Source: Alphaproteobacteria bacterium
GTDB lineage: Bacteria; Pseudomonadota; Alphaproteobacteria; RF32; CAG-239
DNA length: 64,000 nucleotides
Assembly: GCA_045602545.1 (NCBI GenBank)
Contig: JAZSBR010000017.1
Location: 2,675 to 66,674, forward strand
Direction: 5' to 3'
Shown: positions 7,001 through 58,500 of the stretch, in pieces
How positions within the stretch are numbered: the first letter of the stretch is position 1
Layout: each line of letters begins with the position of its first letter
The notes under the pieces: generated by a model
Database searches by the model: none
What the model was told of the DNA's origin: nothing
Seen by the model: only the letters and a program-made list of their open reading frames with translations
Program-made: the position numbers and the translations under genes

Positions 7001-7012
7001 AGCAAAAACCCG

Positions 7013-8102: not shown

Positions 8103-9122
8103 TCACTTTCTAAACGTCAATATCACAAAGTTGTCGTTACCATCGTGAAGCCACTCGTTTGCCTCTGCCGGAGTCCAACGTTTTTTGGCAAATGGGTATT
8201 CATCCAAGCAAGCATTATCCCAGAAAACCTGTCCTTTGGCATAGCAAGAAGATTCGTTTGGTCTTGATCTGCTAGGCACATAACCTTTTTGCCCGAAATC
8301 AGAATCAAAGACATCGGTCAGGTTAATAGCATCATAAGGAGCTAATAAATAATCTTCTAGCGAGCTGTATTCCGTTGTTTCACAATTTTGTCCTTGCGCA
8401 TCGCAAACTTTGAGTTTCCCGTCAGATGTAAAATCATATGTTTCAATAATATCTTGATTGCCATAATTGTCAACTTTGCTTACTGGTCTGCCTGATTCAT
8501 CATAGATGATGCTATAATCATCCATCGGCATAGAACGTACTGAAGAAATCCTTCCATTTTCGTACTCCAATAATGTATCGGTATATGGTTCCCATATTGT
8601 AGCCCCAAAATTTATTATATTGCCTTCAGCATCAAAGCTCGCATTAACAAAACCTAAAGCATTTCCGTTTTCATCATAGCTTTGCATGAATTTTGAAGTT
8701 TCACCAAAATTAGGATAGTAGGCCGTTGCATATAAAGGATCCCCCTGCATATTTTCAGGACTATTAATAGCATTTCTATAAGTTCTTATATCTGTAGACC
8801 AATCATACTGTCCTGGATTGTCGTTTTTTATAGTTACTATATTACCATCATAAGTATAAGTTTCGGCACGACTACCAGACCTATAATATGACATAAGTCC
8901 ATTATCATAATATTGGTATTCATTCCCATAAGAATCTCTGGTCACATAAAAAGTTCCATCTTTAACATAACCTTCATTGCGACCGTCTGTACATTTATTA
9001 TCAGAATCGCAATTAAGAATAGGATCATTGTCGATAACTGTTTTACCGCTCACTATTCTAGCATAGGCATCTGTGCCATAAATTGCAATCATAGTTATTA
9101 AAATTAAGGTTGTTTTTTTCAT
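8103..9122 (-). CDS. secreted protein, YD-repeat-like passenger, family C-terminal tag
   Basis: Signal peptide MKKTTLILITMIAIYGTDAYA. Repeated YD..G motifs. Ends ..KRWTPAEANEWLHDGNDNFVILTFRK. Preceded by leader copy 1. Confidence 0.8.
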   Translation of the reverse strand: MKKTTLILITMIAIYGTDAYARIVSGKTVIDNDPILNCDSDNKCTDGRNEGYVKDGTFYVTRDSYGNEYQYYDNGLMSYYRSGSRAETYTYDGNIVTIKNDNPGQYDWSTDIRTYRNAINSPENMQGDPLYATAYYPNFGETSKFMQSYDENGNALGFVNASFDAEGNIINFGATIWEPYTDTLLEYENGRISSVRSMPMDDYSIIYDESGRPVSKVDNYGNQDIIETYDFTSDGKLKVCDAQGQNCETTEYSSLEDYLLAPYDAINLTDVFDSDFGQKGYVPSRSRPNESSCYAKGQVFWDNACLDEYPFAKKRWTPAEANEWLHDGNDNFVILTFRK

Positions 9123-9149: not shown

Positions 9150-9365
9150 AAAAACTTTAAGACCGCTATAATAGCGGTCGGAAGCTGAAAACTATTAAAA
9201 GACAAATAGTGCGTTTTATTAAAATCTCAAGGATTTCTATTCACACGCCTTCCGACCAATATAGTCAGAAGTATTTGTATAAAAAAATGTCTTTTACGAG
9301 GTTTTCAGGCCTCCGAGCCTTTTATGCTCATCTTTTATATTAGCTGAAAAAAATTATTTTGTAAA
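9150..9365 (-). promoter_or_regulatory. family promoter + structured leader RNA + terminator, copy 1
   Basis: -35 TTTACA (9360-9365), 17 nt, -10 TAATAT (9337-9342). RNA starts near 9329 with GAGCAUAAAAGGCUCGGAGG. Terminator gaccgctat/atagcggtc at 9161-9179. Confidence 0.75.
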
Positions 9366-17204: not shown

Positions 17205-19247
17205 TCACTTTTTGAATGTCAATATAACAAAGTTGTTATCATCATTCAATAAAGGCGCCGCCTCGGCGGGAGTATATTGAATGCGGTTGCAAAATCCACC
17301 CATATCCTTATAGCCGGCACCGCAACCATTGGCAGAACTTATGCAAACTCCGTCTTTGCCTAAATAGCCATCTCCGCAACCCTTGGATTCACTAACACAA
17401 AGATTATCTTTTAAGTAGAAGCCTACATCACAGCCTTCGCCGTCTTCTCTGGCAACACATTCATCTCCGACTTGTTTTTCCCCATAACCGCAACCAAGAT
17501 CTGCAGGGAAACAGGAAGGATAACCTTTGTTATTGGTTCCAATTAAATACCCATCATCACATTCGGAAACACATTTTCCTTGTTGTACATAAAAACCTTT
17601 TTGACATCTGTAACATTCACCATAATTATTCAATAAACAATTTTTTGGCACACACATTCCTTTTTCATAGACAATTTTTTTTGTTTCACCTTCTTCACAT
17701 TCCTCAACACACTTACCTTCCCTCATGTAGGTATTATTTTTACAACCAAAACAAACACCATATGATGCATTACAATTTTTTGGGCGACACATCGAGTTAC
17801 CTATGTCGTCATCATATCCTTCAGGACATGGTTGATCAGAAGGAATACATTCATAACCTGTATTCTTATACCCTTTTTCACATCTTTGACAAACCGTATC
17901 TTGTCCATATAACGTATTCATTCTATAGCAATGCTCTATTTCAATTGGTTGACAGGTACCATTATCATTAGGAGCATAACCATCTTTGCATTCTATGCAA
18001 CGATTACCATTATTTGCACAATGAGCACAATTATCATCATCACAAACAAAACAATTTCCTGAACCACTTCCACCATATCCCTCTTGGCAATTTTCGCATC
18101 TGGCATAATTACTATAGCAAGTCAGACATCCATCGATGGCACATTTGATACACTCTCCATTTTCATTTTTTCCATAACCGGTTTGACAAGATGAACAAAT
18201 ATTTACGTCTGATGTACAATTCGAACAGTTTTCAATAGCACAAGCCTGACAAGAACCATTAACTAATCTAAAACCTGTCTTACAGGTACGACAGGATGTG
18301 TAATTAGATCCACCGCAATCTGAACAATTAGAGTCGGCACAAGCTATGCATTCTTTATTCCCTTCAGAATTTTTTATTCCTAAACCTGTTTTACATTGTG
18401 TGCATGATTTATAATTTGCAGTGCAAAAATTACACCCATCAATAGCACATTTAACACACTCTCCATTTTCATTTTTTCCATATCCAGGGTACTGACATTG
18501 ATTACATATCCGATAATTTGTATTACAATCACTACAATTTTTATTAGAACATTTTTTACAATTATTATTTTCATCTAATCCATAGCCCTCAACACATTTT
18601 GCACATTTACCATTTATTCCACAACTTGTACAATTATCCTGACATTTATCTCTATCTAATTCCAATGAACATTCTCCGTTAATTAAAATATACCCACTCG
18701 TACAGCCTGTACATTTACCTGTTGTTGCATTATACCATGAGCAACCTTCAGGATTTTGTTTACAATTTCCATTTTCCACATAATACCCGCTATTACAACC
18801 CCCGCATTTGCCTTCATTCACATTGTACCATGAACAATTTTCCGGATTTTGTTTACAAACTCCATTTTCCATATAATATCCGCTGTCGCACCACGCACAA
18901 TTACCGCTAACACCGCAAGCACTGCAATTTTCCGGACAAGTATCAGAATCAGCCTCTTCCTCACATCTTCCATTAACTGTTATCATATCATCATAGCAAC
19001 CATCACATTGCTTATAATTATCTTCACAGTCTTCGCAATTTGAATCTTCACACCGCACACAAACACCATTTTCATTGTGCCCATATCCATTGTCGGCACA
19101 ATCGTCACAATATCCGGTTTCTTGGTCACACGAATCTTCACTATAACACATTGAATTTCCGCCGCATAAATATTCATTATACTCCCAAGCATAACTTTGT
19201 TTGAACCCTAAAATTATCATAACTAAACTAAAAACAATCTTTTTCAT
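17205..19247 (-). CDS. secreted cysteine-rich (CXXC / furin- or VSP-like repeat) protein with family C-terminal tag
   Basis: Signal peptide MKKIVFSLVMIILGFKQSYA. Dozens of C-x2-C modules with internal duplicates (GYGKNENGEC(V/I)KCAIDGC twice). Ends ..CNRIQYTPAEAAPLLNDDNNFVILTFKK. Preceded by leader copy 2. Confidence 0.85.
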   Translation of the reverse strand: MKKIVFSLVMIILGFKQSYAWEYNEYLCGGNSMCYSEDSCDQETGYCDDCADNGYGHNENGVCVRCEDSNCEDCEDNYKQCDGCYDDMITVNGRCEEEADSDTCPENCSACGVSGNCAWCDSGYYMENGVCKQNPENCSWYNVNEGKCGGCNSGYYVENGNCKQNPEGCSWYNATTGKCTGCTSGYILINGECSLELDRDKCQDNCTSCGINGKCAKCVEGYGLDENNNCKKCSNKNCSDCNTNYRICNQCQYPGYGKNENGECVKCAIDGCNFCTANYKSCTQCKTGLGIKNSEGNKECIACADSNCSDCGGSNYTSCRTCKTGFRLVNGSCQACAIENCSNCTSDVNICSSCQTGYGKNENGECIKCAIDGCLTCYSNYARCENCQEGYGGSGSGNCFVCDDDNCAHCANNGNRCIECKDGYAPNDNGTCQPIEIEHCYRMNTLYGQDTVCQRCEKGYKNTGYECIPSDQPCPEGYDDDIGNSMCRPKNCNASYGVCFGCKNNTYMREGKCVEECEEGETKKIVYEKGMCVPKNCLLNNYGECYRCQKGFYVQQGKCVSECDDGYLIGTNNKGYPSCFPADLGCGYGEKQVGDECVAREDGEGCDVGFYLKDNLCVSESKGCGDGYLGKDGVCISSANGCGAGYKDMGGFCNRIQYTPAEAAPLLNDDNNFVILTFKK

Positions 19248-19284
19248 CTTTTACTTCCTTTTCTAAAATTATTCCCATTTGCAT

Positions 19285-19515
19285 AAAAGAAAATCGCCAC
19301 ATAAAGGGGCGACTGGAAGCTCGAAACTATTACTTGGTCAGATAGTATGATTTATTCGTAAAGCCATGCTTTCTTATCTCATCACCTTCCAGCCATACAT
19401 GTATGACTGAAAACAAACTATCCTTTTATGAAAGGACAACCAAGTAAGAGGTTTCGATACCTCCGAGCCTTTTATGCTCACTCTTTATACTAGCGGAAAA
19501 AATAAAATTTGTAAA
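19285..19515 (-). promoter_or_regulatory. family promoter + structured leader RNA + terminator, copy 2
   Basis: -35 TTTACA (19510-19515), 17 nt, -10 TAGTAT (19487-19492). RNA 5' end near 19479. Terminator agtcgcc/ggcgatt plus U-run at 19285-19313. Confidence 0.75.
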
Positions 19516-27818: not shown

Positions 27819-28014
27819 TTTACAAAACGGAAATTTTCTGCTAGCATTTTGATTGGGCATAAAAGGCTCGGAGGTCGATAAGCCTCAGGTACAGTATTAT
27901 ACTTCTGACTAATATGGTCGGAAGGTGGCAGAATAAAAACACTAGTGTTGTAATATGTCACACTATTTACTGTATCATAGTTTATCGCTTCCGACCGCTC
28001 GTTGAGCGGTTTTA
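27819..28014 (+). promoter_or_regulatory. family promoter + structured leader RNA + terminator, copy 3 (short subtype)
   Basis: -35 TTTACA (27819-27824), 17 nt, -10 TAGCAT (27842-27847). RNA from about 27855 (GGGCAUAAAAGGCUCGGAGG). Terminator ccgctc/gagcgg plus U-run at 27995-28014. Confidence 0.75.
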
Positions 28015-28048
28015 AATTTTAAAAATTAAAATTTAACGGAGGACTAAA

Positions 28049-28738
28049 ATGATAAAAAATGAAAAAGGACGCTCTATGGTGGAAATGCTGGGAGTATTGG
28101 CAATAATTGGTGTTTTAAGCGTTGGTGGAATCGCCGGTTATTCAAAGGCGATGATGCAATTTAAAATCAATAAAACCATCAACCAAATTATGTACACGGC
28201 TGCGGAAATCAGAACATTATTTGCCGGACAGCCGTATTGTGATGAAAAGGGGAACAATTATTGGGACAATCAACATATATCAAGTATAACAAGTAATATT
28301 TTTAAATGCGATGATGATCGTTGGCATAATTGCTATAATGAATGGGGTGAAACGGTTTATATATATTCTGAGTGTGTAAGATCAAGATATGAACAATTTG
28401 GCTATTATAACAAATCAGAATTATTCAGAATTTATACAAATATTCCATATGAGGCTTGTGTAAAATTTTATTCAACAGATTGGGGAACACGTGCAACAAC
28501 CGGAGTTTTTGCTATTAATATGGATGATTCATGTTCAGTATATGAATTTGGTTGCGCATATCAGAGTGATTATAAAGAAATGCATGAAACAGAAGCTTCA
28601 ACTTGGGCAAAAGATGTAGCGCAAGAAATGGGTATTCCAGCGGAATATACTATTCCGATGTCTGTTGCTGATGCAGTACAATTTTGTAAACAATATGAAG
28701 GTGATGACTTTGTGGGTTTTGCCATCTTTTTTGAATAA
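28049..28738 (+). CDS. prepilin-type (class III signal) N-terminal domain protein
   Basis: MIKNEKG|RSMVEMLGVLAIIGVLSVGGIAGY: Gly, Glu at +5, and a hydrophobic helix of about 20 aa. SD GGAGG lies 7 nt before the ATG. Preceded by leader copy 3. Confidence 0.75.
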   Translation: MIKNEKGRSMVEMLGVLAIIGVLSVGGIAGYSKAMMQFKINKTINQIMYTAAEIRTLFAGQPYCDEKGNNYWDNQHISSITSNIFKCDDDRWHNCYNEWGETVYIYSECVRSRYEQFGYYNKSELFRIYTNIPYEACVKFYSTDWGTRATTGVFAINMDDSCSVYEFGCAYQSDYKEMHETEASTWAKDVAQEMGIPAEYTIPMSVADAVQFCKQYEGDDFVGFAIFFE

Positions 28739-33096: not shown

Positions 33097-33328
33097 TTTA
33101 CAAAGCAAAAATTTTTTGCTAACATCTTTTATAGAGCATAAAAGGCTCGGAGGTCAAGAAGCCTCTTGTAGATATAGTCCTTGCATAAAAGGATAGTTTT
33201 GTTTTCAGTCATATTCGTATGGCTGGAAGGTAGTGAAATAAGAGACCTTCTGGTTTGCGAATAAACTACACTATCTTATCTACAATAGTTTCTTGCTTCC
33301 AGTCGCCTTTTTTGGCGATTTTTCTTTT
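33097..33328 (+). promoter_or_regulatory. family promoter + structured leader RNA + terminator, copy 4
   Basis: -35 TTTACA (33097-33102), 17 nt, -10 TAACAT (33120-33125). RNA from about 33134. Terminator agtcgcc/ggcgatt plus U-run at 33301-33328. Confidence 0.75.
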
Positions 33329-33369
33329 ATGCTTAATTGGCATAATTTTTTGAAAAAAGGAAAATTAAG

Positions 33370-34152
33370 ATGAATAAAATTGTTTTATTAACAAGTGCGG
33401 CAGTAATGTGTTTTACCACAATCAGTAAATCAATAGCTGAAACCTGGGACTGCGGAGACCAAGGAAATAATGTCCAATGTACACTTGATGAGGATGGAAC
33501 TTTTACTGTTTCCGGCAGTGGTAAAATGGCGGATTATGAGTATGATACTTACGATGGGGTAGGAAATGGACCATCCTCAGGCGCGCCATGGGGAGGTAGT
33601 AGAGCGGCAATGAATAGAATCAAAAGTATAATAGTAAAAGATGGTGTAACAAAAATTGGCAAAGGATCTTTTACCGGAGCAGCAGCGCTTGTGAGTGTTT
33701 CCATGTCCGGAGTTGAAGTTGTGGGGGAACAAGCATTTCGTGATGCTTATTTATTGAAGGAAGCATATATGCCTAAGGTGGAAATAATTGAAACTGGTGG
33801 TTTTGATTGGAATAAGAGTCTTGAAAATGTGTATGCTCCAAGTGTCAGAATAATTGATTCTTTAGCATTTGAAAATGCAGTTTCGCTTAAATATATAGAA
33901 ATGGGTAATAATGTCTCTATAGGTTCTTCTGCATTTCATAATACTAAAATTCAAAACTGTGGAAATGGCGGAACCTGTATTAACTGTGGTGATAAATATG
34001 CGTTGTTAGGGAAAGGGTGTGTAAATAAATGCCCTGACAATTTTAAAATTAATGACGGTTATTGTGACCGCATTCGTTATACTCCTGCCGAAGCGGCTCA
34101 AGTTTTGCGCGATGATAATACAAACGAGGTGACAATTACGTTTAAAAAATAA
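33370..34152 (+). CDS. secreted BspA-type leucine-rich-repeat protein with family C-terminal tag
   Basis: Signal peptide. ETWDCGD..GTFTVSGSG N-terminus. LRR units (..IGKGSFTG.., ..VGEQAFRD.., ..IDSLAFEN.., ..IGSSAFHN..). Cys-rich module. Ends CDRIRYTPAEAAQVLRDDNTNEVTITFKK. Confidence 0.85.
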   Translation: MNKIVLLTSAAVMCFTTISKSIAETWDCGDQGNNVQCTLDEDGTFTVSGSGKMADYEYDTYDGVGNGPSSGAPWGGSRAAMNRIKSIIVKDGVTKIGKGSFTGAAALVSVSMSGVEVVGEQAFRDAYLLKEAYMPKVEIIETGGFDWNKSLENVYAPSVRIIDSLAFENAVSLKYIEMGNNVSIGSSAFHNTKIQNCGNGGTCINCGDKYALLGKGCVNKCPDNFKINDGYCDRIRYTPAEAAQVLRDDNTNEVTITFKK

Positions 34153-36024: not shown

Positions 36025-36350
36025 GCTTTTATGCGGTGAAAGTTCAAATAGCGAAACATTTAATAAAACCGGCATAAAATAAGAGTATTTTTTTATAAAA
36101 GTAAATAAAATCAAAAAGTTAAGCGTAAAACAGCTGGTCAATTTAAACCAACGTTTGTTGTCAACACTTTTTTTCATTTTTTTAATTTTTCGTCAAAAAG
36201 GATTTTAAGCCTTATAATTATTGCTTTTTAGGCATATCATTCTAACCTGACTCGTTCTGAAATTTTTCATTTTTTCATTGGTGGAAATAAACGTTCGTTT
36301 TGTTACAATTAGACAAATGACAAAATAAATTGATAGTAAAGGATACGAAA

Positions 36351-38759
36351 ATGAGTGATAATACCTTGAAAATCGAAGTAATTCCTAATGGTTTCTTATA
36401 TTTTGAGCCAATGGGTTCTGTTAGCGATGGAATGCAATTTATTGCAACGGCAAAAAGAAATTCTTCTCAAGATGCTAAAGTTGCAGATTGGTTTGAAGGA
36501 ACAAAAAAACAAGGACAATCACGTGATTTTAAATCAGTAATGCATACAGCATTAGCGGCATGTGATGCGGTCAACGGCGGGAAGGATAAATGGAAGGTAT
36601 TCAGAGCTATTGAAAATTATCAAAAATCACATAATTTGACGATTACTGTTCAACCTAAAGGTCAAAATAAGGGCAATACAGGTAATAATCAAAACAGCGG
36701 AAGACGTGATAGTCTTGTGGCTTTAAGCAAATTACCTCAAGGTGAGATTGTTGGAAAATTCCAAACAAAATTTGGTATCCAAAAAAGTGATTGGGAACAA
36801 AAAGTTACTCCTGTTGGTGGATCTTCAATAATTTCAGTAATATTGAAATATAAAGGTAAACAATATTCTGGAAAAGGAAGTGATAAACGTGCAGCACAGC
36901 AATCTGCTATTCTTGATTTTTTAGAAAAAGAATATGGTATTACAACAAAATCTGAAAGAGAAGCACAAAAAGCTGAAGCTGAAAGACGTGCGGCACAAGA
37001 AAGACAAGAGGAATTACTAGATGAGACAAAATATTTAAGAGTTTTAAGCGAGCGTTCAGATGTCGAAGTAAAACCTACATCTTGGATTAACCCACAAAGA
37101 CCAGCCAAAGGCTCTCGTATTCCGGCAAATAGTTTTCTTATTGATACACCTTATGGTAAACAAAAATTAACAGATAGTGATATTTCATTAACGATGATTA
37201 AAGGCGTAAAAGTTTCTGAAGAAGAACGTGAAGCATATAATCAAAGAATAGAAGATGATAAAAAATCATTAATAGATGAGATTGAACAAAGAATTGCACA
37301 TGAAAAAGAAATTGAGCGATTAGAAATTGAAATGAAAGAAAAGGAGTCACGAGAAAAGTTAGCTAGAGAAGAAAGGAGACAAGAAAATGGAGGTTTGAAT
37401 GCTAAATTAGAAAATGCTGTTAAATCTGATAATTTGGAAGAGGTCAAATCTTTGATTAAAGAAGGAGCTCAAATTTCAAATGCATGGGATAAAAAAGAAG
37501 ATTTTGAAAATACATTATTAATAGCTTTAGATGCTGTACCTATTAATCAAGATATGGTAAATTATTTGATAGATCATGGTGCTAAAACAGAATTTGAAAC
37601 CTATGATTACGATGGGGAATTATCATCTACACAATCGTTGCTTTGTTCACGTATAGAAGATTTAGATGTAGATGCTGTTAGAGCCTTGGTTGTAGGTGGT
37701 GCTGATATTTGGTTTGAGTCACAAGGATATAGTGGAGGTACTAGTATTGATAATGCAATTGCAGAAATTGAAGAGCGTTATGACGATGAATATTACTATG
37801 GATATAAAGAAACCCAAGAAATCATGCAAATAATAAAAGATGCACGGGAAGGAAATCTTGAAATTCATAAAAAAGAAAATGTTGCTGAAACAGACGCCAA
37901 AGACAATGCAATTATAGAAAATAGTGTGTCGGTGATGACTGATGCTTCTAACGAGCAACAAGTTCAGAAATCATCAACAATTGAATTCGTCGGAGCGATG
38001 GACAATCCACACTTTATGGAGCGGCATTTCAATAAGGAATCTTTAACAATAGGCTCAAAACCATTACCATTAGCACCGGAAGAAAAAATGGTAGCTGCTA
38101 TGACAGAACTTGACGCACATGCCCAAGAAATCATGCGCACACAAGAAGAGCCAAATAAAATTTATTTAGCGATGGAATTTGATCAGCATATGTCCACCAA
38201 TCCTATTGCACCGAAGGATTGCGTTGAACAAGGTAAAATATTCTCGGTTATTCGTGATGCTGGAACACCATATGAAAAAGAAGTTCAAATTGCATTGATT
38301 TCGAAAGAAGACATGCCTAAAACCAATGTGGTTCATGCAATTTACGGACCATATGATGAAAAACAGTTTGGTAATTATACAGCATTTTTCGGGGCTATGA
38401 GCGAAGCATTTCCTCGCGAATTACCGGAAAATGCAACGCCGGAGCAAATTGCTCAGAACGAGAAGAATAAAGAGTATTGGGATAAACATATTTTCTTGGC
38501 TACACCGGAAGAAGTCGGCAAGATTGTTAAAGATTTGCAACAAGCAGCTCAAAATCCTGAACTAAGTGCAGAAAAGAAGCAACAATTCACAACGGTAGCT
38601 TCTGCAGCAAATATGCGTATTAATCTTTTTAAGAATATGGGGAAAAAATCACCACTAACGGCTGCTACATATCAAGCAAATATCGAGCCATATGAGATAA
38701 AAGTACCTCAGCCGAAAGGTAATGGTAATACTAGAGGCGGAAAAGGTATAGGTGAATAA
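36351..38759 (+). CDS. large multidomain protein: dsRBD-like segment, E/K coiled coil, ankyrin repeats, unknown C-terminal domain
   Basis: ATG 36351 follows AAGGA (the track's TTG 36330 is less likely). ..ILKYKGKQYSGKGSDKRAAQQSAILDFLEKE resembles the dsRBD C-terminal signature. ANK-like LENAVKSDNLEEVKSLIKEGAQ.., MVNYLIDHGAKT.., VRALVVGGADI. Confidence 0.7.
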   Translation: MSDNTLKIEVIPNGFLYFEPMGSVSDGMQFIATAKRNSSQDAKVADWFEGTKKQGQSRDFKSVMHTALAACDAVNGGKDKWKVFRAIENYQKSHNLTITVQPKGQNKGNTGNNQNSGRRDSLVALSKLPQGEIVGKFQTKFGIQKSDWEQKVTPVGGSSIISVILKYKGKQYSGKGSDKRAAQQSAILDFLEKEYGITTKSEREAQKAEAERRAAQERQEELLDETKYLRVLSERSDVEVKPTSWINPQRPAKGSRIPANSFLIDTPYGKQKLTDSDISLTMIKGVKVSEEEREAYNQRIEDDKKSLIDEIEQRIAHEKEIERLEIEMKEKESREKLAREERRQENGGLNAKLENAVKSDNLEEVKSLIKEGAQISNAWDKKEDFENTLLIALDAVPINQDMVNYLIDHGAKTEFETYDYDGELSSTQSLLCSRIEDLDVDAVRALVVGGADIWFESQGYSGGTSIDNAIAEIEERYDDEYYYGYKETQEIMQIIKDAREGNLEIHKKENVAETDAKDNAIIENSVSVMTDASNEQQVQKSSTIEFVGAMDNPHFMERHFNKESLTIGSKPLPLAPEEKMVAAMTELDAHAQEIMRTQEEPNKIYLAMEFDQHMSTNPIAPKDCVEQGKIFSVIRDAGTPYEKEVQIALISKEDMPKTNVVHAIYGPYDEKQFGNYTAFFGAMSEAFPRELPENATPEQIAQNEKNKEYWDKHIFLATPEEVGKIVKDLQQAAQNPELSAEKKQQFTTVASAANMRINLFKNMGKKSPLTAATYQANIEPYEIKVPQPKGNGNTRGGKGIGE

Positions 38760-38780: not shown

Positions 38781-40130
38781 ATGAGTAATGAAGATATTTT
38801 AGCAAAAGTCCGTCATAAAGTGGCTGGTGACAGGTTATTGGTTGTTGCTGATAACTTTGATGCAGAGCATCCGCTTGATACTGTTGTTAAGACAACTTCC
38901 GGCAAAACAGCTTATGGATATATTCCAGAAGAAATTGCTGATAAAACAGGCGGAAAACCGGCTCCGGTTATTGTTACCGAAGAGTTGTTCGACCATTTAG
39001 ATGTTAAAGGTACGCGTATTCAAACCGTTGCTCAGCGTGGTTTTGATGATATACGTGATGCTGTGGAATATGCTTTGCAAAAACCTGAGGCTGTGGCTTT
39101 AGGCGGTGGTGATGGTTCTTTTAATATCTTCTTTAAAAAAGAAGGTTTTGAAAAAGGTTTAATGTATGCAAATTTGATGTATTCAAACGAGCCGACACCG
39201 GCTTATATTGTTCGCTCAATTTCTCCAACAGGTAAGGTTAAAGGTGATTTATTATTTGAAGGTGATTCTGTCCCGTCAATGTCTATTCCGTCAGGGTTTA
39301 ATGACAAAGAGTTTGAAGAAAAAATTAAATCGTCATCAGGGGATCGTGTTTCCGGTAAAACTTGGAATAAAGGCAATGTAATGAAAGCTTTGCGTATGCA
39401 TGCGCAAGAAGGAAAATACCCGACAACAGAAGAATTTGCCGAAATTAAGCAATGGGTGGCTGATGGTAAAACTGACCATTTGACATCAGGCAGTGTGGGA
39501 ATGTATATTAAACAAGCATTAGAGCAGAAAAACAGTGCAATGTTCTTTAAAGCCGGTCAAGAGGCAGATGTCTGGGGAAAAGTTTCTCCAGCTATTAAGT
39601 ATGTTACAAGTCAACAATTTTTAGAAACAATGGAACGTGCTGATAATGCTTCTGTTGACATTAAATCAGCAATTATATTAGCAGGAATGGCTGTTGCGGC
39701 ACCGGAAGATAAACGTGCAGAAGAAGTTAAAAAATGCAGTGTTACCTTCAATTTAGGCGGAAAAGATTTAGCTACGGCACTGGTACAAAGTGAAAAAGGT
39801 TTATTGGAATTTGATTTGAGCAATGCCGAAAAAGCCTATAAGACAGTGGAAAGCATCATGGGTAGTAAGTTTGAAAATGAACAAATGTTGTCTGACGTGT
39901 TGAAAGTATGTAAGCTTAAACATCCGGATTTTGAAGTTGGTCAAGTTGGAAAATATTGTCATCTTGTTGCAGATGCCGTCAAGACAGCTCGATCAGGTGT
40001 TGATATAAAATCTATGTCTCCGGAAGAAAAGAAGGCATATTTCAGCAACAAAGCAGCGTTTGATATTGCTGCGGTTAAATCAGCCTTTACTGCAGAAATG
40101 ACCAAAGATAATTTTATCGGACCAAGATAG
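38781..40130 (+). CDS. hypothetical protein (449 aa), probably co-transcribed with the preceding gene
   Basis: SD AGGAG lies 6 nt before the ATG, 21 nt after the upstream stop. Same CpG-poor composition as the preceding gene. No family recognised. Confidence 0.65.
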   Translation: MSNEDILAKVRHKVAGDRLLVVADNFDAEHPLDTVVKTTSGKTAYGYIPEEIADKTGGKPAPVIVTEELFDHLDVKGTRIQTVAQRGFDDIRDAVEYALQKPEAVALGGGDGSFNIFFKKEGFEKGLMYANLMYSNEPTPAYIVRSISPTGKVKGDLLFEGDSVPSMSIPSGFNDKEFEEKIKSSSGDRVSGKTWNKGNVMKALRMHAQEGKYPTTEEFAEIKQWVADGKTDHLTSGSVGMYIKQALEQKNSAMFFKAGQEADVWGKVSPAIKYVTSQQFLETMERADNASVDIKSAIILAGMAVAAPEDKRAEEVKKCSVTFNLGGKDLATALVQSEKGLLEFDLSNAEKAYKTVESIMGSKFENEQMLSDVLKVCKLKHPDFEVGQVGKYCHLVADAVKTARSGVDIKSMSPEEKKAYFSNKAAFDIAAVKSAFTAEMTKDNFIGPR

Positions 40131-43933: not shown

Positions 43934-45085
43934 TTATTTTTTGAAAGTAATCGTTACTGAATTATTATTATCATCGGTCAGAACTTCAGCCGCTTCGGCA
44001 GGGGTGTAACGTAAGCGGTCGCATTCACCGTCATTGAGCTTAAAATTTTCGTTTTTGCATTTTGTGCAACCCGAGGCGCCCATTTTTGTGCAACCGTCGG
44101 GATAGGCAAGTAATTTTCCGGATAAAAGATCGTTTAAATGGTCTTTACAATCGCTTATCCAAGACGGATAGCGCTCTTCCAATTTTTTCCCAGCCTTATC
44201 ACAATCAACATTACTGAACAATTCTTCGCATTTTTCGGCTCCGCAATAAACCTTGGCATCTGCCCCTAAAGCTAAGTTACGAAGAAACCAGCCTTCAATT
44301 GAAGTTATGCTCGGTGGAAGTATGAGTGTTCCGTTAAACCCTGTCGAAAGGTTAGCCCAAGGACCATCTCCTAATGTGGTTTGTCCGTCATTAACAATAA
44401 CCGTTCCGGTCACAATAGCTTGGTCAAATGAATTAGAATCTGTCTTATTAACCTTTAGAACCCCATCCTTACCGTGTATATTTGCTCCGAAAATATAAAA
44501 AGCGTGCTGTCCTATTGAGCTAAACTCTCCATCAATTTCAACATCGCTAACAGTTGGGAAATTTCCGCTTTCGTAATATCGAGGTGAAAACATTCCCTTT
44601 GAAACAACGGCATCAGGCTTGGTCGCGGTTACGGTCAACTTGCCATTATTATAGTTATAAGTGCAACCCTCGCCGCAATTATTGGGAACTCCGGGATTCC
44701 ATTCATGGCAGGTATCAATCCAATTTTTTTCGGTCGCCATACATTCTGCCCGTGATTCGGTGATAGTGATGAGGGTTAAAACAATGGCAAGCACCGGAAT
44801 CGTCATTATGAGGAGCATTCTTTGAATGCGACGTGATAATTTCATAAAACAAGTGACGCTTGCAAATAAGTATTCTTTATTTGCATGAGTACCTTGCTCA
44901 GGGAGATAACCACGTCGGACTGAAGTCCTCCTCGTTATGACGCCCTCTATTTCAAGCGCTTCGCCACATTCACTGCCGATTGTCGCCGTCCCGCCGACGA
45001 GGTTTTTATACAAAAACCTCTTGGAATATTTATTGCATTCTTCGCCTGATTTAAGCATTTGAACACTATTAAAATTCTTCCTCAT
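43934..45085 (-). CDS. secreted/anchored LRR-like protein with family C-terminal tag and an 80-aa pre-signal extension
   Basis: The ATG at 45085 sits at the same position after the leader and SD (AAGGAAGTAAAAGATG) as in copy 2. An alternative start at 44845 (MKLSRRIQRMLLIMTIPVLAIV..) gives a classical signal peptide. Ends CDRLRYTPAEAAEVLTDDNNNSVTITFKK. Confidence 0.75.
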   Translation of the reverse strand: MRKNFNSVQMLKSGEECNKYSKRFLYKNLVGGTATIGSECGEALEIEGVITRRTSVRRGYLPEQGTHANKEYLFASVTCFMKLSRRIQRMLLIMTIPVLAIVLTLITITESRAECMATEKNWIDTCHEWNPGVPNNCGEGCTYNYNNGKLTVTATKPDAVVSKGMFSPRYYESGNFPTVSDVEIDGEFSSIGQHAFYIFGANIHGKDGVLKVNKTDSNSFDQAIVTGTVIVNDGQTTLGDGPWANLSTGFNGTLILPPSITSIEGWFLRNLALGADAKVYCGAEKCEELFSNVDCDKAGKKLEERYPSWISDCKDHLNDLLSGKLLAYPDGCTKMGASGCTKCKNENFKLNDGECDRLRYTPAEAAEVLTDDNNNSVTITFKK

Positions 45086-45123
45086 CTTTTACTTCCTTTT
45101 CTAAAAAAAATACCACTCAGCAT

Positions 45124-45354
45124 AAAAGAAAATCGCCTCATAAAGGGCGACTGGAAGTTGCGAACTATTGTACATCAGATAGTGTGATTTATTCGCAAAG
45201 CTAAAGCTTTCTTATTTCATCACCTTCCAGCCATATAAATATGACTGAAAATAAAACTATCCCTATTTATAAGGACAAATGTACAAGAGGTACGCACACC
45301 TCCGAGCCTTTTATGCTCTAGAGGTATGCTAACAGAAAAAATTTAAAAAGTCAA
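45124..45354 (-). promoter_or_regulatory. family promoter + structured leader RNA + terminator, copy 5
   Basis: -35 TTGACT (45349-45354), 17 nt, -10 TAGCAT (45326-45331). RNA 5' end near 45318. Terminator agtcgcc/ggcgatt plus U-run at 45124-45150. Confidence 0.75.
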
Positions 45355-49525: not shown

Positions 49526-50272
49526 TTATTTCTTGAATGTAATAGTTACCTCATTCGTATTATCATCACGCAATACCTTAGCCGCATCCGCCGGAGTCCA
49601 ATGTACATGGTTACAGAAATTTTCAAACTGACGATATCCGGCACCGCAACCTAAAGATGCATCTATACATTTTCCCTCTTTTCCTAAATATCCAACTCCG
49701 CAATCTTTCACGCACCCCAATCCGCTTTTAACATAATCATTACAAATACCACATGACGTATGTTTATTAGAACAAGAAGGAATTTTAGTACCATCAAAAA
49801 CATGACTTCCGACCATGGCATTATCCTTAAATTGTGCAAATTCAAGATTTGTTGAGCCAGCAAATACTGAGGCTGCAATTACTGCGTTTGGTATAGATAT
49901 GCTCTTTAATTTTCCGGCAGATTGGAAAGCCCAATTACCGAGAGATTCAACGCTGTCTGGGATATAAATACTTTCTAAGTTTTGTAAATTTTTGAATGCT
50001 CCTGCTCCGACTCTGGTAACTCCTTCACTAATTATAATTTTTTTTATTTGATCTGTTTTATCTTCCCAAGGACGCTCAACCTCTAAACCTGTATCATTGT
50101 TCGTGTAATAATCTTTTATATTTCCTGTTCCGGATACAATCAAGGTGCCATCGTTTTGAAGTGTGCAAATAACACTACTCTTTTCATCGCCACAGTCCCA
50201 CATTTCCGCTTTTAAATTACCGATAAATGCTATATTTATCGCTACGCTTGTTAATAAAAACAGTTTTTTCAT
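49526..50272 (-). CDS. secreted BspA-type LRR protein with family C-terminal tag
   Basis: Signal peptide. EMWDCGD..GTLIVSGTG. LRR units (VGAGAFKN, LGNWAFQS..). Ends CNHVHWTPADAAKVLRDDNTNEVTITFKK. Preceded by leader copy 6. Confidence 0.85.
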   Translation of the reverse strand: MKKLFLLTSVAINIAFIGNLKAEMWDCGDEKSSVICTLQNDGTLIVSGTGNIKDYYTNNDTGLEVERPWEDKTDQIKKIIISEGVTRVGAGAFKNLQNLESIYIPDSVESLGNWAFQSAGKLKSISIPNAVIAASVFAGSTNLEFAQFKDNAMVGSHVFDGTKIPSCSNKHTSCGICNDYVKSGLGCVKDCGVGYLGKEGKCIDASLGCGAGYRQFENFCNHVHWTPADAAKVLRDDNTNEVTITFKK

Positions 50273-50310
50273 ATTTATTTCCTTTCCTTAAAAATTATTT
50301 TCATTTAGCA

Positions 50311-50540
50311 TAAAAGAAAAATCGCCCCAAAAAGGCGACTGGAAGTTAGTAACTATTATGTATTAGATAGTGTGATTTATTCGTAAAGGTTACCCCTTCT
50401 TATTTCATCACCTTCCAGTCATACGCATATGACTGAAAACGAAACTATCCCATCAAAAGGATTAATACATACGAGGTTACTACACCTCCGAGCCTTTTAT
50501 GCTCAATTTTTATGCTAGCAGAAAAAAATTGCTTTGTAAA
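50311..50540 (-). promoter_or_regulatory. family promoter + structured leader RNA + terminator, copy 6
   Basis: -35 TTTACA (50535-50540), 17 nt, -10 TAGCAT (50512-50517). RNA 5' end near 50504. Terminator agtcgcc/ggcgat plus U-run at 50311-50338. Confidence 0.75.
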
Positions 50541-50732: not shown

Positions 50733-51656
50733 TTACTTTCTGAAAGTAATTGTCACTTCATTGCTGTTATCATCAAACAAAACTTCGGCGGCTTCAGCAG
50801 GTGTCCAGCGAATGCGATTGCACCAATTTTCAATCCTTTTATAATTGTCACCGCAACCGGTCGCGGCGGCAATACATTCACCGTCTTTTTCCAAATATCC
50901 GCTTTTGCAAGTCTGGCAATGTATATCATCGCGCATTTCTTCGCAATTTGCCGTAACGGTGCGGCATTTTCCGCTCTTTTTATCACCATATTGACCAATC
51001 GGACATGTTTCAGCACAAGTTCCGGCTAAGGTCAGATATTTGCCTTTTTCGCATGTCTGATCTTGATTGCCGATACATAAACCATTTGTCAAACTTCCGG
51101 CAGTACAATTGTTGCAAGCAAAACCTTCTCCGGATATACTGCATCTATTGCATCCGGCAATTAAATTACTGCATGTATAACATGTGCCATCCTTTTTTAT
51201 CTGGTTTTGTCCTCGGCAATCAATACATTGGCTTTTATCTGCGTTCCAGCCGGCGTAATCAGCGCATACGAGTGTAGTGCGCCCCTCATCATCAACATTA
51301 CATCCTGCCGTATGCTGAGATGACGGACAAGTATAGCATGTCCCGTTTTTAATTTTTTGATTTATGCCTCGGCAATCAATACATTTGCTTTTATCCGCGT
51401 TCCAGCCGGCGTAACCGGCGCATACGAGTGTAGTGTGCCCCTCATCATCAACATTACATCCTGCTACATGGTTTAGTGTTGGTGTTGAACAAGTATAGCA
51501 TATACCATTTTTTAATCTTTGATTTATACTGCGACAATCGATACACACTCCGTTTTCATTCAATCCATAAGGAGAAAAGCAAGCAGCAAAAGAATTATTC
51601 AAAGAAAACATAAATATTGCTATGGTCGATATTACTAGCAAAAATATTTTTTTCAT
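50733..51656 (-). CDS. secreted cysteine-rich repeat protein with family C-terminal tag
   Basis: Start at MKKIFLLVISTIAIFMF.. (51656), after AAGGAAAAAG. Three tandem units of about 52 aa (CIDCRxxNQxxKxGxCYTC...GCN...). Ends CNRIRWTPAEAAEVLFDDNSNEVTITFRK. Preceded by leader copy 7. Confidence 0.85.
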   Translation of the reverse strand: MKKIFLLVISTIAIFMFSLNNSFAACFSPYGLNENGVCIDCRSINQRLKNGICYTCSTPTLNHVAGCNVDDEGHTTLVCAGYAGWNADKSKCIDCRGINQKIKNGTCYTCPSSQHTAGCNVDDEGRTTLVCADYAGWNADKSQCIDCRGQNQIKKDGTCYTCSNLIAGCNRCSISGEGFACNNCTAGSLTNGLCIGNQDQTCEKGKYLTLAGTCAETCPIGQYGDKKSGKCRTVTANCEEMRDDIHCQTCKSGYLEKDGECIAAATGCGDNYKRIENWCNRIRWTPAEAAEVLFDDNSNEVTITFRK

Positions 51657-51699
51657 TTTCTTTTTCCTTTCTTTTTTATAAATTAAACCACGCATAAAA

Positions 51700-51911
51700 A
51701 CCAAAAACCTCCGAAACGGAGGCCGGAAGAGACAAACTATTTCGTATGATATAGTGTAACATATTCGAACTTGACAATTCTTATTCTGTTACCTTCCAGC
51801 CGAAAAGGATGGAAATATTGCTATTTTTAGCTTTCATACGAATGAGGTTTGTCTACCTCCGAGCCTTTTATGCTCAATTTTTATGCTAGCAGAAAAAAAT
51901 AGCTTTGTAAA
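51700..51911 (-). promoter_or_regulatory. family promoter + structured leader RNA + terminator, copy 7 (internally most divergent)
   Basis: -35 TTTACA (51906-51911), 17 nt, -10 TAGCAT (51883-51888). RNA 5' end near 51875. Terminator cctccg/cggagg plus U-run at 51701-51724. Confidence 0.75.
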
Positions 51912-54253: not shown

Positions 54254-54790
54254 ATGAACAAGTTGATAGTTTTGCTTTTTGCCGTGGTGCTTTGCTCATC
54301 TGCAAACGCGCAGGATTTTGATTTGAGCGACATAATGCAGGGAGGTTTTTCCGGCGTATCAAGTGCCGAATATGATGAGGCCTTTAATGAACTTGACAGC
54401 AATAAAAACGGTTATTTAAGCGAAAATGAGTTATTGAAGTTTCAGCAAAATGGCTTGGGGCAGGCTGAAGATTTAACCTATAAGGTTTTTGACGCTGATG
54501 AAGACGGAAATGTGAGCAAAGATGAGTATTTGGCTTTTTTCAAAAAACAACCGGCACAAAATGTTTCCGAAGCCGATTTGGCGCGAATTTTTGAAGATAT
54601 GGATGCTGATAAAGACGGCAATTTATCGCCTGAAGAGCTTAAAGAATATCGCCTTAAACATCTGGAAGCGCAGAATCGTGAAATTTTTAAGCTGATGGAT
54701 TTTAATCACGACCGAAAATTAACCAAAGAAGAATTCGGCAGTTTTATGGCATTTACAAAAAGCATTTTGGGAAATATACAAGGTTTTTAA
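54254..54790 (+). CDS. secreted EF-hand calcium-binding protein
   Basis: Signal peptide. Four EF loops: DSNKNGYLSENE, DADEDGNVSKDE, DADKDGNLSPEE, DFNHDRKLTKEE. Confidence 0.8.
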   Translation: MNKLIVLLFAVVLCSSANAQDFDLSDIMQGGFSGVSSAEYDEAFNELDSNKNGYLSENELLKFQQNGLGQAEDLTYKVFDADEDGNVSKDEYLAFFKKQPAQNVSEADLARIFEDMDADKDGNLSPEELKEYRLKHLEAQNREIFKLMDFNHDRKLTKEEFGSFMAFTKSILGNIQGF

Positions 54791-55565: not shown

Positions 55566-58500
55566 CTAAAAATGATAATTTAAGCTCAAGCCGGTATCCG
55601 TGCGATATTCGCGGTCAATATTTGTGCGAAGTATCGCCGAAATATCAAGATTTTCTTTGATGTTATAACCGGCACCGAAGCGAAGAACAGTGCGTTTGTC
55701 GCCGTGTTTTTCATCTTTGAGCTTATAATTACCATTCATCTCATTCATGCCGACTTTCAAATCATAAGGGTCGGCAAACTCTTTATAAAAAGACATGCCT
55801 CCGCTGATTTTAAGCACAGAATCTTTGTTCGGCGTAAATTCTTTTTCCAAATTAAAGCCGACGCCGGATTCAACCGAATAATGATTTTGCGAGTCAATAT
55901 TTAGGCTGTATTGTTTTGTATCTTCACGGCCCTTAACATTGAACCCAATCATATTAAATTCGGCATTCGGCACGATTTTTACACCATTAAACTTGAACGG
56001 ATAGCGAGCCTCGTTCATCAAAGCAAAGGTTTTGCGCTCAACCGTTCCGTCATAGTTTTCACCGTTCAAACCTTCACGCTCGTATGAACCGCGGGCATAG
56101 CCGAGTTTAGGCGAGGTGATAAGCTCAAAACCATGTGTTTTGTGTGAAACAGGCATGCTGAGCATGATGTTTTTATCCAGTTTGTTGGAATTCTTGCTCT
56201 TGTTGTCTGCTCTGACATCTGCAACAGCCAAGCCGACGGCAACCGACGTTTTTCCGTCACTGTATCCGTTTAAGGCATAGTGACTGCTTGAGCCGAATTT
56301 TTGCCCCTTTACGATTTCAACACCGTCAGCCAAAGAAAATGTGCCTTTCTTTTGCTCGGTCAAGTTGTCATTCATGGCAAAATTCATCTCACGCAAAGTG
56401 TTCAAATCTTCAAAGGTTAAATTGCTCATCAGATTATTGCCGAACAAATCATTAAGGTTTTGGTTGAACTGTGCGGAATTTTCGGCTGATTTAAGCGAAT
56501 TAAACAGATTTTCGTTATTTTTCTCGGCATAGTTATTTTCCAAGAAATCAGCCAACGATGAGTTTTCAACCACACTCGCAAAGTCTTTTTTGCTCATGAT
56601 GACATCGGTATTGCCGTTGTCGTTAAGCGCTTTGTCAGCATTGAACAAATATGAACCCGAAGTGATGTTTAAGCCCATATCCTCGCCGACGAACGAATTT
56701 TTGTTGGTGTATTCGTTTTCAAATCCGCCGAGAGTTATATCGGAATCGGCAACAACATTACCGCTGAAAGACAAAGCCTTAAAACTTCCGCCGTTTGCAA
56801 TATTTACGGAACTTGTGTCATCGGTTGAAGCACTGAAATCAAGCGCCGAATTTGTGGTTATGAGACCGCTGTTGATGATTTTTCCGGAGTTGGAAGCCAT
56901 CATCATTGTTGTTTTTGGCGCTGATAAAGCTAATGATGACGGTTTTACTTCAGCTGCTTTTCCGGTTGCAGTAGCGCCATTTTTACCAACTAACCCATTT
57001 GACAAGGACTCTTCTGTCGGCATATATATGTGTGTTGCATTATTATTGGTGTTAGTTGCTGTTGAACCACTACCGCTTGCAAACATACCATAAGACGATG
57101 CATCATTTATGATAATAGTTCCGTTATTAGTTATTCTACCACCGTTTACGGCGTACATACCATAGGAAGCCGAAGCATTCACAATTATGGTTGCACCGCT
57201 TGCATTGGTTGCCGTTGCGCCGGCACCATCTGCCGTCATGCCTGATGAACCTGCTGCACCTGCTAAAACGTTAATTGTTCCTTTATTTATAGCACTAGAT
57301 CCATTTCGGGCATACATACCGGATGAGCCGGTTGAGCTTACATTTATGACTCCGGCGCCGTTTCCGTCACCGTTTGTAACAGTGGCTCCCTCATCGGCAA
57401 CCATACCGTTTGATGCAGAAAAGGCAACGTTGATTGTTCCTTTATTGGTTGCGGTTGCCTGCGTTGTTGTATCACCATTATGGGCATATATACCAATTAC
57501 ATTGGTTGCCGAACTGCTTGAAGACGAACTCTCAGGAGCAATATCTATTGTACCTTCATTTACAACATTTCCACCATTATATGAGCGCATACCAAAAGTG
57601 TTGCTTCCGGTCAACTTTATGCTTGCACTGTTTGCATTTGTTGCAGACGAACCGCTGCCTTGGGCATAAATACCGAATGAATCGGAGCCGGAGACAATAA
57701 TTGTTCCGGAAGTGTTTGTCGCTGTGCCTCCGTCTTTGGCGCCAAGGCCGCGAGCTTTTTCTCCGCTTACACGAATGGTACCCAAATTACGAACTGATGA
57801 ACTTTGGTTATTGTTTGATATCATGCCGTAAGCACCATTTGCTGAGGCATTGATTTCACCTGACGCAAGATTTTCGGCAATGGTGGAAATGCCATTACTG
57901 CTGTTAGATATTATACCATAAGAGTTTATGTCATAAATATTGATAATGGCACTGTTTTCGGCTTTTGCTCCGTCTTCTATGACAATGCCTGCTGATCTGT
58001 ATTTATCGGAACCTTCCGAGCCGACATTTATAACACCATTTGCACCATTGACTGCCTTTGCTCCCAGACCTGTTGCATAAATGGCTTGCGAGCCGTCTTG
58101 TTCATCGTTATTTGCGCCAGATGCGTTCATTGTACCGTTGTTGGTAACGTTAATTTTATTGCCGGATGATGTGCTGTTTGCATATATGCCGGCACTCTCT
58201 GTTTGAGTAGAATTTATAACCCCTCCTTCGGCATTTGTGATGTTTGTAGTTCCGGCTTGAAGTTGATCTGTATGAATACCGCTTGTTTTATAGCCGGAAG
58301 CATTGATTGTTCCAGAGTTTGTTACAGTTGCACCACTGTTGGTATAAATACCGATAGCGCCGTGATTATCTGTTGTACCTGCTCCGCTTGCACTGATAGT
58401 GCCGGTATTATTAACTATTGCGCCATTTTCGGCGAAAATACCGACAGAGCCGTTTTGCCCCGCTGTTGCACCGGTGGAAGCCAGAATTGTGCCTTTGTTT

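Follow-up and report, generated by a model that had tools for sequence, protein, structure and literature searches.

Six proteins encoded in the 64-kb stretch of DNA that was analysed (the window) end in the same tail, and according to the family of sequences it belongs to and to its predicted structure this tail may well be a lineage-specific C-terminal sorting or anchoring signal that has no transmembrane (TM) segment. Translation and a six-frame regular expression scan of the window found exactly six open reading frames (ORFs) with the common tail and no seventh copy. Their consensus of about 28 residues is R-[YW]-TPAEA[AN]-x-[VWL]-L-x-D-[DG]-N-x-N-x-V-x-[IL]-T-F-[KR]-K-stop, and an alignment of the last 36 residues contains 12 invariant columns. 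In the 33370 gene, positions 34066-34152 hold the D...K-stop part, that is, the last 28 codons and the stop (see Table 1 for all copies). The called starts of two ORFs, 43934-45085(-) and 50733-51704(-), are too long; the signal-peptide Met lies at 44845 and 51656, respectively, and the former ORF reaches its called start via about 240 nt of inserted sequence.

Codon differences between the window tags were counted in all 15 pairs. pS is 0.52-1.05, which means saturation, and pN is 0.12-0.38. Because pS is saturated and pN is low, the copies are old paralogues kept by selection at the protein level, and the saturated synonymous sites led us to reject recent gene conversion as the source of their identity. 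Strong purifying selection acts on the tag in proteins with widely differing passengers. An earlier note on this DNA had described six proteins with the same C-terminus and had ascribed the conservation to the protein level rather than to recent gene conversion. All tails quoted there are reproduced by translation, and both statements agree with our results.

Table 1. Tags, tag genes and leader RNAs in the window
Feature	Position	Strand	Remarks
Tag of 33370 gene, CDRIRYTPAEAAQVLRDDNTNEVTITFKK + stop	34063..34152	+	subtype a
Tag of 8103 gene, CLDEYPFAKKRWTPAEANEWLHDGNDNFVILTFRK + stop	8103..8210	-	subtype b
Tag of 17205 gene, CNRIQYTPAEAAPLLNDDNNFVILTFKK + stop	17205..17291	-	one residue shorter
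Tag of 43934 gene, CDRLRYTPAEAAEVLTDDNNNSVTITFKK + stop	43934..44023	-	
Tag of 49526 gene, CNHVHWTPADAAKVLRDDNTNEVTITFKK + stop	49526..49615	-	
Tag of 50733 gene, CNRIRWTPAEAAEVLFDDNSNEVTITFRK + stop	50733..50822	-	
33370 gene, whole	33370..34152	+	Sec signal peptide, BspA-type LRR (LRR_5), Cys hairpins, tag
8103 gene, whole	8103..9122	-	signal peptide, YD/RHS-like repeats (weak match), Cys hairpin, tag
17205 gene, whole	17205..19247	-	signal peptide, long Cys-rich furin-like repeats, tag
43934 gene, from signal-peptide Met	43934..44845	-	passenger without Pfam match
49526 gene, whole	49526..50272	-	signal peptide, LRR_5, Cys hairpins, tag; AlphaFold-modelled
50733 gene, from signal-peptide Met	50733..51656	-	Cys-rich repeats, tag
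Leader RNA with terminator, upstream of 33370 gene	33131..33330	+	
Leader RNA, upstream of 8103 gene	9150..9332	-	
Leader RNA, upstream of 17205 gene	19282..19482	-	
Leader RNA, upstream of 43934 gene	45121..45321	-	
Leader RNA, upstream of 49526 gene	50310..50507	-	
Leader RNA, upstream of 50733 gene	51695..51878	-	
Seventh leader RNA	27852..28022	+	upstream of untagged type IV pilin-like gene 28049-28738

The tag is not confined to the window. A 36-residue tag profile searched against 1.84 billion representative proteins gave 295 cluster representatives with E<=1e-3, of which 214 reach E<=1e-10; the E-values of 1e-13 to 1e-20 are far from what chance would give. Judged by this profile, the tag family comprises roughly 300 clusters. 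A word-indexed protein search for the tag gave 10 and 17 matches, short fragments only. Family statistics are based on 158 sequences. The T of TPAEA is found 22-24 residues from the C-terminus in all of them, Phe occupies position -3 in 156, and the residues T, P, A, E, A, N, N, T and F of the tag are each at least 98% conserved in proteins whose passengers share little else. The final four residues are TFKK in 108 members, TFRK in 39, TFKM in 5 and others in 6. Accordingly, the T-F-[KR]-K end is present in 147 of 158 sequences, and 11 (about 7%) deviate, ending in M, H, I, L, Q or S (FKM in 5, FKH, FKI, FKL, TKS and others); a final Lys is likewise missing in loci L002 and L003. More distant variants end ...NTIFLYYK or ...TVTLTFK.

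Between the last cysteine and the T of TPAEA there are 6 residues in 127 sequences, 12-13 in 30 and 5 in one. Conservation sets in at this cysteine, upstream of TPAEA. The tag of about 27 residues described in the earlier note is correct as regards the tail itself; the true module begins upstream, at the last cysteine. Subtype a can be written as C-[ND]-R-[IVL]-[RQ]-[YW]-TPAEAA-x-[VL]-L-x-DDN-x-N-x-VTITF[KR]K and subtype b, to which the 8103 gene belongs, as EYPFAKKRW-TPAEANEWLHDGNDNFV[IV][IL]TFKK. The highest 15-residue Kyte-Doolittle mean within the last 30 residues is 0.75 and the median is -0.05 (n=158). By this measure none of the 158 members has a hydrophobic or TM segment in the tag, as had been stated for the window copies.

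The window is chromosomal, with genes for AspRS, a ProRS-type protein, LeuRS, GluRS, GyrA, MltA and Lgt. It also encodes a Tim44-like protein typical of Alphaproteobacteria as well as flavodiiron, ankyrin and EF-hand proteins. In a scan of one genome per species the tag was found in three places. Two of them are alphaproteobacterial metagenome-assembled genomes (MAGs) from the ruminant gut, namely RUG410 ('uncultured Rhodospirillaceae') and RGIG7040 (Alphaproteobacteria). A contig of 3.4 kb that was binned to Selenomonas ruminantium is the third; its GC content is 50.8% as compared to 36-43% in all other tag loci, and it has been either horizontally transferred or mis-binned. Further tag loci were obtained from ENA and Logan metagenome assemblies. 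In the window as well as in loci L005, L007 and L012 each tag gene stands alone, inserted between housekeeping genes: six solitary copies are spread over the 64 kb of the window, and two are present in the 19 kb of L012. No partner gene (LDT, Omp85, sortase-like, PDZ-protease or pilus machinery) was found within the window, and no candidate partner gene was found in the related tag loci. The window does contain a classical autotransporter of 2041 residues (C-terminus ...LSLNYHF). An ordinary route for surface proteins is therefore present, which counts against a dedicated tag signal.

A Sec type I signal peptide is present on all six tag proteins of the window. In the family, a Sec leader is recognisable on 102 of 158 sequences, at the called start in 73 and behind an over-long called start in 29; the remaining 56 are mostly short fragments or have uncertain starts. 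Members that look full-length carry Sec signal peptides, and the link between the tag and signal-peptide-bearing proteins, on which the earlier note had made its proposal depend, holds for the family. Passengers were surveyed with Pfam in the 128 members of at least 150 residues. BspA-type LRR_5 repeats were found in 80 and LRR_8 in 8, whilst RHS, furin-like, FNIP, MORN and ephrin-receptor-like Cys repeats are each limited to one or two members; Pfam identified no enzyme or solute-binding protein among these 128. An additional FN3-like passenger occurs in L004. The usual architecture is signal peptide, LRR_5, Cys hairpins and tail. Judging from these assignments, the passengers are diverse yet all of repeat or adhesin type, with a Cys-rich stalk before the tag. 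They had been called 'otherwise unrelated', which is right with respect to their diversity and too strong in that the leader type and the Cys-rich stalk are common to them and LRR_5 recurs in most of the surveyed members. BspA-type proteins of other phyla have a T9SS CTD, a cell-wall anchor or a TM tail at this position.

It is important to note that a disulfide hairpin at fixed spacing always accompanies the tag. Since the tag always comes with a Cys-rich stalk, it could be a structural end-piece rather than a signal. The tail would then have no role in sorting; it would be the cap or oligomerisation element of the stalk in one expanded paralogous family and would be conserved through stabilising or multimerising that stalk. 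The fact that most members share one architecture is consistent with this, and the low model confidence of the tail (see below) is equally expected for an oligomerisation strand in a model of the monomer. However, near-invariant positions are concentrated in the tail, and the stalk repeats that it would cap are much less conserved. In addition, the same tail follows YD/RHS, furin-like, LRR and (in L004) FN3-like passengers, and a strictly free terminus with a basic end is atypical of a cap. We consider a purely structural role decidedly unlikely.

Two structure predictions were made. The 49526 protein was modelled with AlphaFold2 from an alignment of 78 sequences. Its LRR domain and Cys hairpins are confident (mean pLDDT 84.7), and in the tag the sole helix is at residues 227-231 (PADAA), with pLDDT of 68, 68 and 51 by block and below 50 for the last four residues. 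The last 75 residues of the 8103 protein, which represents subtype b, were modelled with AlphaFold from 31 sequences; here the disulfide hairpin is confident (pLDDT 79-90), a helix covers PAEANEWL with pLDDT of about 61-64 and the tail is a coil with pLDDT of about 68. In both models the tag is a helix of 5-8 residues followed by a coil tail, with pLDDT of 51-68. As modelled, the tag is not an autonomous domain. Its parts are a short helix R-[YW]-TPAEA[AN]-x-[VW]-L, a turn D-[DG]-N-x-N, an amphipathic stretch V-x-[IL]-T-F and the terminal [KR]-K-COOH. The helix, turn and single beta strand that had been expected from the sequence are thus modelled as far as the helix is concerned; in place of the strand the tail is a low-confidence coil. 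Low pLDDT of the tail beside a confident passenger and stalk is typical of a segment that requires a partner, and the low model confidence leads us to infer that the tag behaves like a peptide of this kind.

Taken together, Sec export, the terminal position, the near-invariance and the lack of a TM segment suggest that the tail is read by one trans-acting component of the envelope. We propose the following course of events. Once the protein has been exported by Sec and its disulfides have formed, one envelope component common to all these proteins would bind the exposed tail as a peptide. This component would fix or deliver all the adhesin-like passengers to the same place in the envelope, be it the cell surface or the peptidoglycan. 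The free C-terminal end, consisting of an aromatic residue, a basic residue and Lys, would be the part that is recognised or that serves for attachment.

One particular form of anchoring would be covalent attachment of the Lpp-box type, in which a periplasmic YkuD L,D-transpeptidase would link the side chain of the C-terminal Lys to the meso-DAP of peptidoglycan, as happens with Braun's lipoprotein (Lpp) and Dickeya OutB, and the passengers would be tethered to the sacculus in the periplasm. Lpp is gammaproteobacterial and the known alphaproteobacterial links to peptidoglycan are made via the N-termini of outer membrane proteins (OMPs), which counts against this explanation. The 6-residue Lpp box has been shown to be necessary and sufficient for attaching a periplasmic reporter to peptidoglycan; it tolerates substitutions and requires a C-terminal Lys (PMC12274547). 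The C-terminus is VRTYKK in Dickeya Lpp, VRTTKK in OutB and an Arg-Lys pair in E. coli Lpp, and attachment of other Lys-ending periplasmic proteins has been predicted by the same authors (PMC12274547). The box resembles the tag in being located at the extreme C-terminus (TYKK/TTKK/YRK as compared to TFKK/TFRK), in being portable from one protein to another, unrelated one and in acting after Sec export (PMC12274547). A Lys that follows basic and aromatic/Thr residues on an exported protein is what characterises the box in sequence, and the TF[KR]K end of 147 of 158 members, together with their Sec leader, has this form. The divergent ends LYYK and LTFK keep the aromatic residue and the terminal Lys, and the strictly terminal position of the tag fits as well. 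On the other hand, the Lpp box needs the final Lys, whereas the 11 deviating members and the tags of L002 and L003 do without it. The box has 4-6 residues and the tag about 28 with a conserved helix and turn, which leaves about 20 near-invariant upstream residues unexplained. Moreover, Lpp-box carriers are envelope-tethering proteins, whereas the carriers of the tag are alphaproteobacterial and adhesin-like, and so many diversified LRR, YD and Cys-rich passengers would be unexpected for residents of the periplasm. There is no YkuD gene within the window. Attachment of the Lpp-box type is therefore, in our opinion, unlikely.

Regarding the control of the tag genes, a conserved block was found upstream of all six. 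It has a promoter-like TTTACA-N17-TATAAA and then about 190 nt that end in a hairpin with a U-run, after which come about 40 nt, the RBS and ATG. The cassette of promoter, leader, passenger and tag described in the earlier note is therefore real in the sense that the block precedes 6/6 tag genes. A further copy is located before an untagged gene (28049-28738) whose product has a prepilin-type N-terminus (KG followed by RSMVEMLGVLAIIGVL) with Glu at +5 and a weak match to Bundlin. Nine leader copies, the seven from the window and those from L005 and L006, were aligned. RNAalifold folds them into 44 pairs; 95.2% of cells pair as compared to 36-48% when the partners are slid, compensatory changes are present in 23 pairs, and none of 500 shuffles matches the observed pairing values. 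Two long-range helices are hypervariable in sequence with complementarity always kept. The search of Rfam with the leader gave no family, either at the gathering threshold or at E<=10. On this comparative evidence the structured nature of the leader RNA is well supported, and Rfam has no family for it. An alternative pairing recognised by inspection covaries as well, namely the invariant GGYYGGAAGG with CUUCCRRYC, and it overlaps the 5' half of the terminator. Such covariation over a terminator suggests that the leader is an attenuator or riboswitch-like switch.

Independent copies of the leader were detected with a covariance model of these nine, in L001 (128 bits) before another prepilin-like ORF and in RUG410 (29 bits) and L012 (27 bits) upstream of tagged genes. 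A metagenome scan with the leader-RNA pattern gave a single locus, L006, where the leader precedes a non-secreted ORF of 78 residues. Because of this copy the leader is not exclusive to envelope genes, and co-regulation is weak evidence. Still, a leader that is common to the tag genes and a pilin-like gene points to a regulon of surface structures. A GGDEF gene lies nearby, and in view of the pilin and adhesin genes c-di-GMP would be the first candidate ligand of the leader. Going one step further, the tag could be the address label of an unknown post-Sec display system of gut Alphaproteobacteria in which adhesin heads are brought to one envelope receptor and are switched together with the pilin by the leader RNA; we regard this extension as possible but rather doubtful. 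If this is true, each genome would possess dozens of interchangeable adhesin heads, the receptor would be either the tip of a type IV filament or a dedicated transpeptidase, and the leader RNA, as an undescribed attenuator or riboswitch-like element, would switch the pilin and the entire set of heads.

The pilin-like gene also brings in the possibility that the tag is a peptide for docking on, or secretion by, a type IV filament machine (T4bP- or T2SS-like). The tail would hook a minor pilin or pseudopilin, and the passenger would be pushed through a secretin or shown at the pilus tip, making the passengers exchangeable adhesin heads of one fibre. The pair CofJ-CofB is reportedly a case related to TcpF-TcpB. 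In the latter, TcpF has its T4bP secretion signal in the form of a flexible N-terminus, which hooks onto the trimer of TcpB (PMC9565799). The signal of the colonisation factors TcpF/CofJ is like the tag in being a short flexible terminal peptide on a Sec-exported protein, which in the case of TcpF docks on a pilin (PMC9565799). The tail is an unfolded peptide in AlphaFold, and the tag genes have their leader RNA in common with a prepilin-type gene in the window and again in L001, both of which would fit. Nevertheless, the known signals are N-terminal, have no sequence similarity to the tag and belong to cargo encoded in the pilus operon, whereas the tag is C-terminal and its genes are scattered. 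No pilus machinery gene was seen in the window, the pilin assignment consists of an N-terminal motif and sub-threshold HMM scores, and in L006 the leader stands before an ORF that is not an envelope gene. A docking role in a type IV machine seems very improbable to us.

Comparison of the tag with databases gave the following results. Pfam did not match the tag in the six window proteins or in the 128 family members, and NCBIfam did not match it in the six window proteins at E<=1. The tag profile produced chance matches only among PDB sequences (best E 0.14), and Foldseek found 0 matches to the C-terminal model among PDB folds. IMG/VR viral contigs contained no copy. The tag motif strings had no match in the full text of about 8 million papers, literature on rumen Alphaproteobacteria with BspA or LRR yielded nothing relevant, and members of the tag clusters are given no names in their source databases. 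As far as the databases and literature searched go, the tag is undescribed. A match to a characterised domain or sorting signal, which had been named earlier as the outcome that would speak against novelty, was not found in Pfam, NCBIfam or PDB. To read the tag as a new signal for sorting or anchoring is plausible, and none of our results contradicts it.

More than once a common C-terminal tag has pointed the way to a sorting machine; sortases, exosortases, rhombosortase and T9SS are examples. As the present tag has no TM helix and does not come near a T9SS CTD in size, its partner is probably new to protein sorting, or else L,D-transpeptidases would be used in a new way. The adhesin-like repertoire marked by the tag in this uncultured host-associated lineage is large and diversified, and the 36-residue profile is a clean handle for listing this repertoire in MAGs and for phylogenetic profiling of the partner. 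The leader RNA offers a second entry point, into the control of the surface repertoire.

Several known C-terminal signals resemble the tag in part. The T9SS CTD, for example that of Tannerella BspA, is also C-terminal and TM-less, is carried by Sec-exported and often LRR_5-type proteins, and is recognised in the periplasm by machinery of its own. It is a folded beta-sandwich of 70-100 residues with NCBIfam/TIGRFAM models of its own and is restricted to Bacteroidota. The tag has about 28-36 residues, no autonomous fold in the models, no match in Pfam or NCBIfam and an alphaproteobacterial host, and a T9SS CTD was rejected. LPXTG, PEP-CTERM, GlyGly-CTERM and MYXO-CTERM are likewise short C-terminal signatures on many different secreted proteins of a genome; unlike the tag they have a TM helix and a basic cluster after the motif. 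A signal of the sortase, exosortase or rhombosortase type was rejected due to the lack of a TM helix (n=158) and of an NCBIfam match in the six window proteins. An autotransporter (T5SS) was rejected as well: there is no barrel, and the proteins end in KK, as compared to ...LSLNYHF in the autotransporter of the window. In these respects our results agree with the earlier note, which had set the tag apart from LPXTG, PEP-CTERM and GlyGly-CTERM by its lack of a hydrophobic helix and had found it far shorter than a T9SS CTD or an autotransporter barrel.

The OMP beta-signal, which is read by BamA/BamD, has the same alternation of hydrophobic and polar residues up to a Phe (V-T-I-T-F in the tag). 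In a true beta-signal the aromatic residue is the last one, as in the autotransporter of the window. In the tag, Phe is at -3 with basic residues after it and no barrel precedes it, and this candidate was rejected. Substrates of T1SS with a C-terminal signal are made without the Sec peptide that is found on the window proteins and on most family members, which excludes this type. A dockerin or EF-hand loop was rejected as there is no Pfam match and D-D-N-x-N-x-V, by eye, fails at loop positions 6 and 8 and at the acidic position 12. An N-glycosylation sequon in D-D-N-x-N was rejected by inspection, no N-x-S/T being in register. Compared with all of these, the tag is best filed among the C-terminal protein-sorting and anchoring tags, presumably as a new variant.

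The leader RNA shared by the tagged genes is a structured element of ~190 nt that has a promoter-like site of its own and an intrinsic terminator, and an alternative anti-terminator pairing can be discerned in it. Compensatory changes are found in 23 of the 44 predicted pairs, and pairing holds in 95% of cells as compared to 36-48% for slid controls. In two long-range helices the sequence is hypervariable while complementarity is kept in every copy. The leader is without a matching family in Rfam. It resembles an attenuator or a riboswitch. A gene with a weak GGDEF-domain match is divergent from the tagged gene 8103 and its leader; this neighbour may be relevant if the leader RNA senses a cyclic dinucleotide.

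Coordinates of leader RNA copies and of genes discussed in the text (L-numbers, related loci in ruminant-gut MAGs or metagenome contigs)
Feature	Locus	Position	Strand	Remark
Leader RNA	window	9150-9332	-	
Leader RNA	window	19282-19482	-	
Leader RNA	window	27852-28022	+	
Leader RNA	window	33131-33330	+	
Leader RNA	window	45121-45321	-	
Leader RNA	window	50310-50507	-	
Leader RNA	window	51695-51878	-	
Leader RNA	L001	7771-7957		
Leader RNA	L005	2470-2655		
Leader RNA	L006	4302-4477		
Leader RNA	L002	4277-4534		
Leader RNA	L012	6600-6818		
Type IV pilin-like gene	window	28049-28738	+	prepilin signal, weak HMM scores
Pilin-like gene	L001	7993-8109		second leader/pilin-like pairing; contig unrelated to window
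GGDEF-domain protein	window	9434-10642	+	weak match
Ankyrin-repeat protein	window	1725-3020	-	eukaryote-like
Four-EF-hand protein	window	54254-54790	+	eukaryote-like
ORF, 809 aa	window	36330-38759	+	orphan
ORF, 449 aa (adjacent)	window	38781-40130	+	orphan
Autotransporter, 2041 residues	window	55566-61691	-	classical
Subtype-b tagged gene	L004	2305-3360		contig CADAAS010000214.1, binned to Selenomonas ruminantium RUG13114

The same leader also precedes a pilin-like gene in the window. Its product carries the prepilin signal KG|RSMVEMLGVLAIIGVL with Glu at +5, and its scores to the Bundlin and prepilin HMMs are weak. No pilus machinery genes lie near the leader-linked pilin-like genes.

In the tagged gene 43934, ~240 nt (44846-45085, minus strand) separate the ATG at 45085, whose spacing to the leader RNA is the canonical one, from the signal-peptide Met at 44845. 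Many family members in other assemblies begin, as called, with translated versions of this stretch (NSVQMLKSSEDCDKYSKSVSYETLVGG...), and a second stretch (NKSAVILNPERSEWVSRSHVTSVE...) recurs in the same way. Insertion of repeat elements between leader and ORF probably accounts for both and for the mis-called starts.

Regarding tagged genes in other contigs, the L004 product has 351 residues with a signal peptide, a non-LRR passenger and a subtype-b tag. GC content of its contig is 50.8%, as compared to 36-43% for all other tag loci; either horizontal transfer into a Negativicute has occurred or the contig is mis-binned. In the Logan contig L001, a tagged LRR gene (6900-7702) is broken by a frameshift into overlapping frames 6900-7466 and 7451-7702; either the gene is a pseudogene or the contig is misassembled.

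The two orphan ORFs have no matches in Pfam or NCBIfam. Together with the ankyrin-repeat, EF-hand and flavodiiron proteins they suggest an anaerobic host-associated lifestyle. The autotransporter has a signal peptide and a long passenger of Ser/Gly/Asn-rich repeats, and its C-terminal barrel ends in ...LSLNYHF. This protein illustrates what a genuine beta-signal looks like in the organism, as well as a conventional route for surface proteins.
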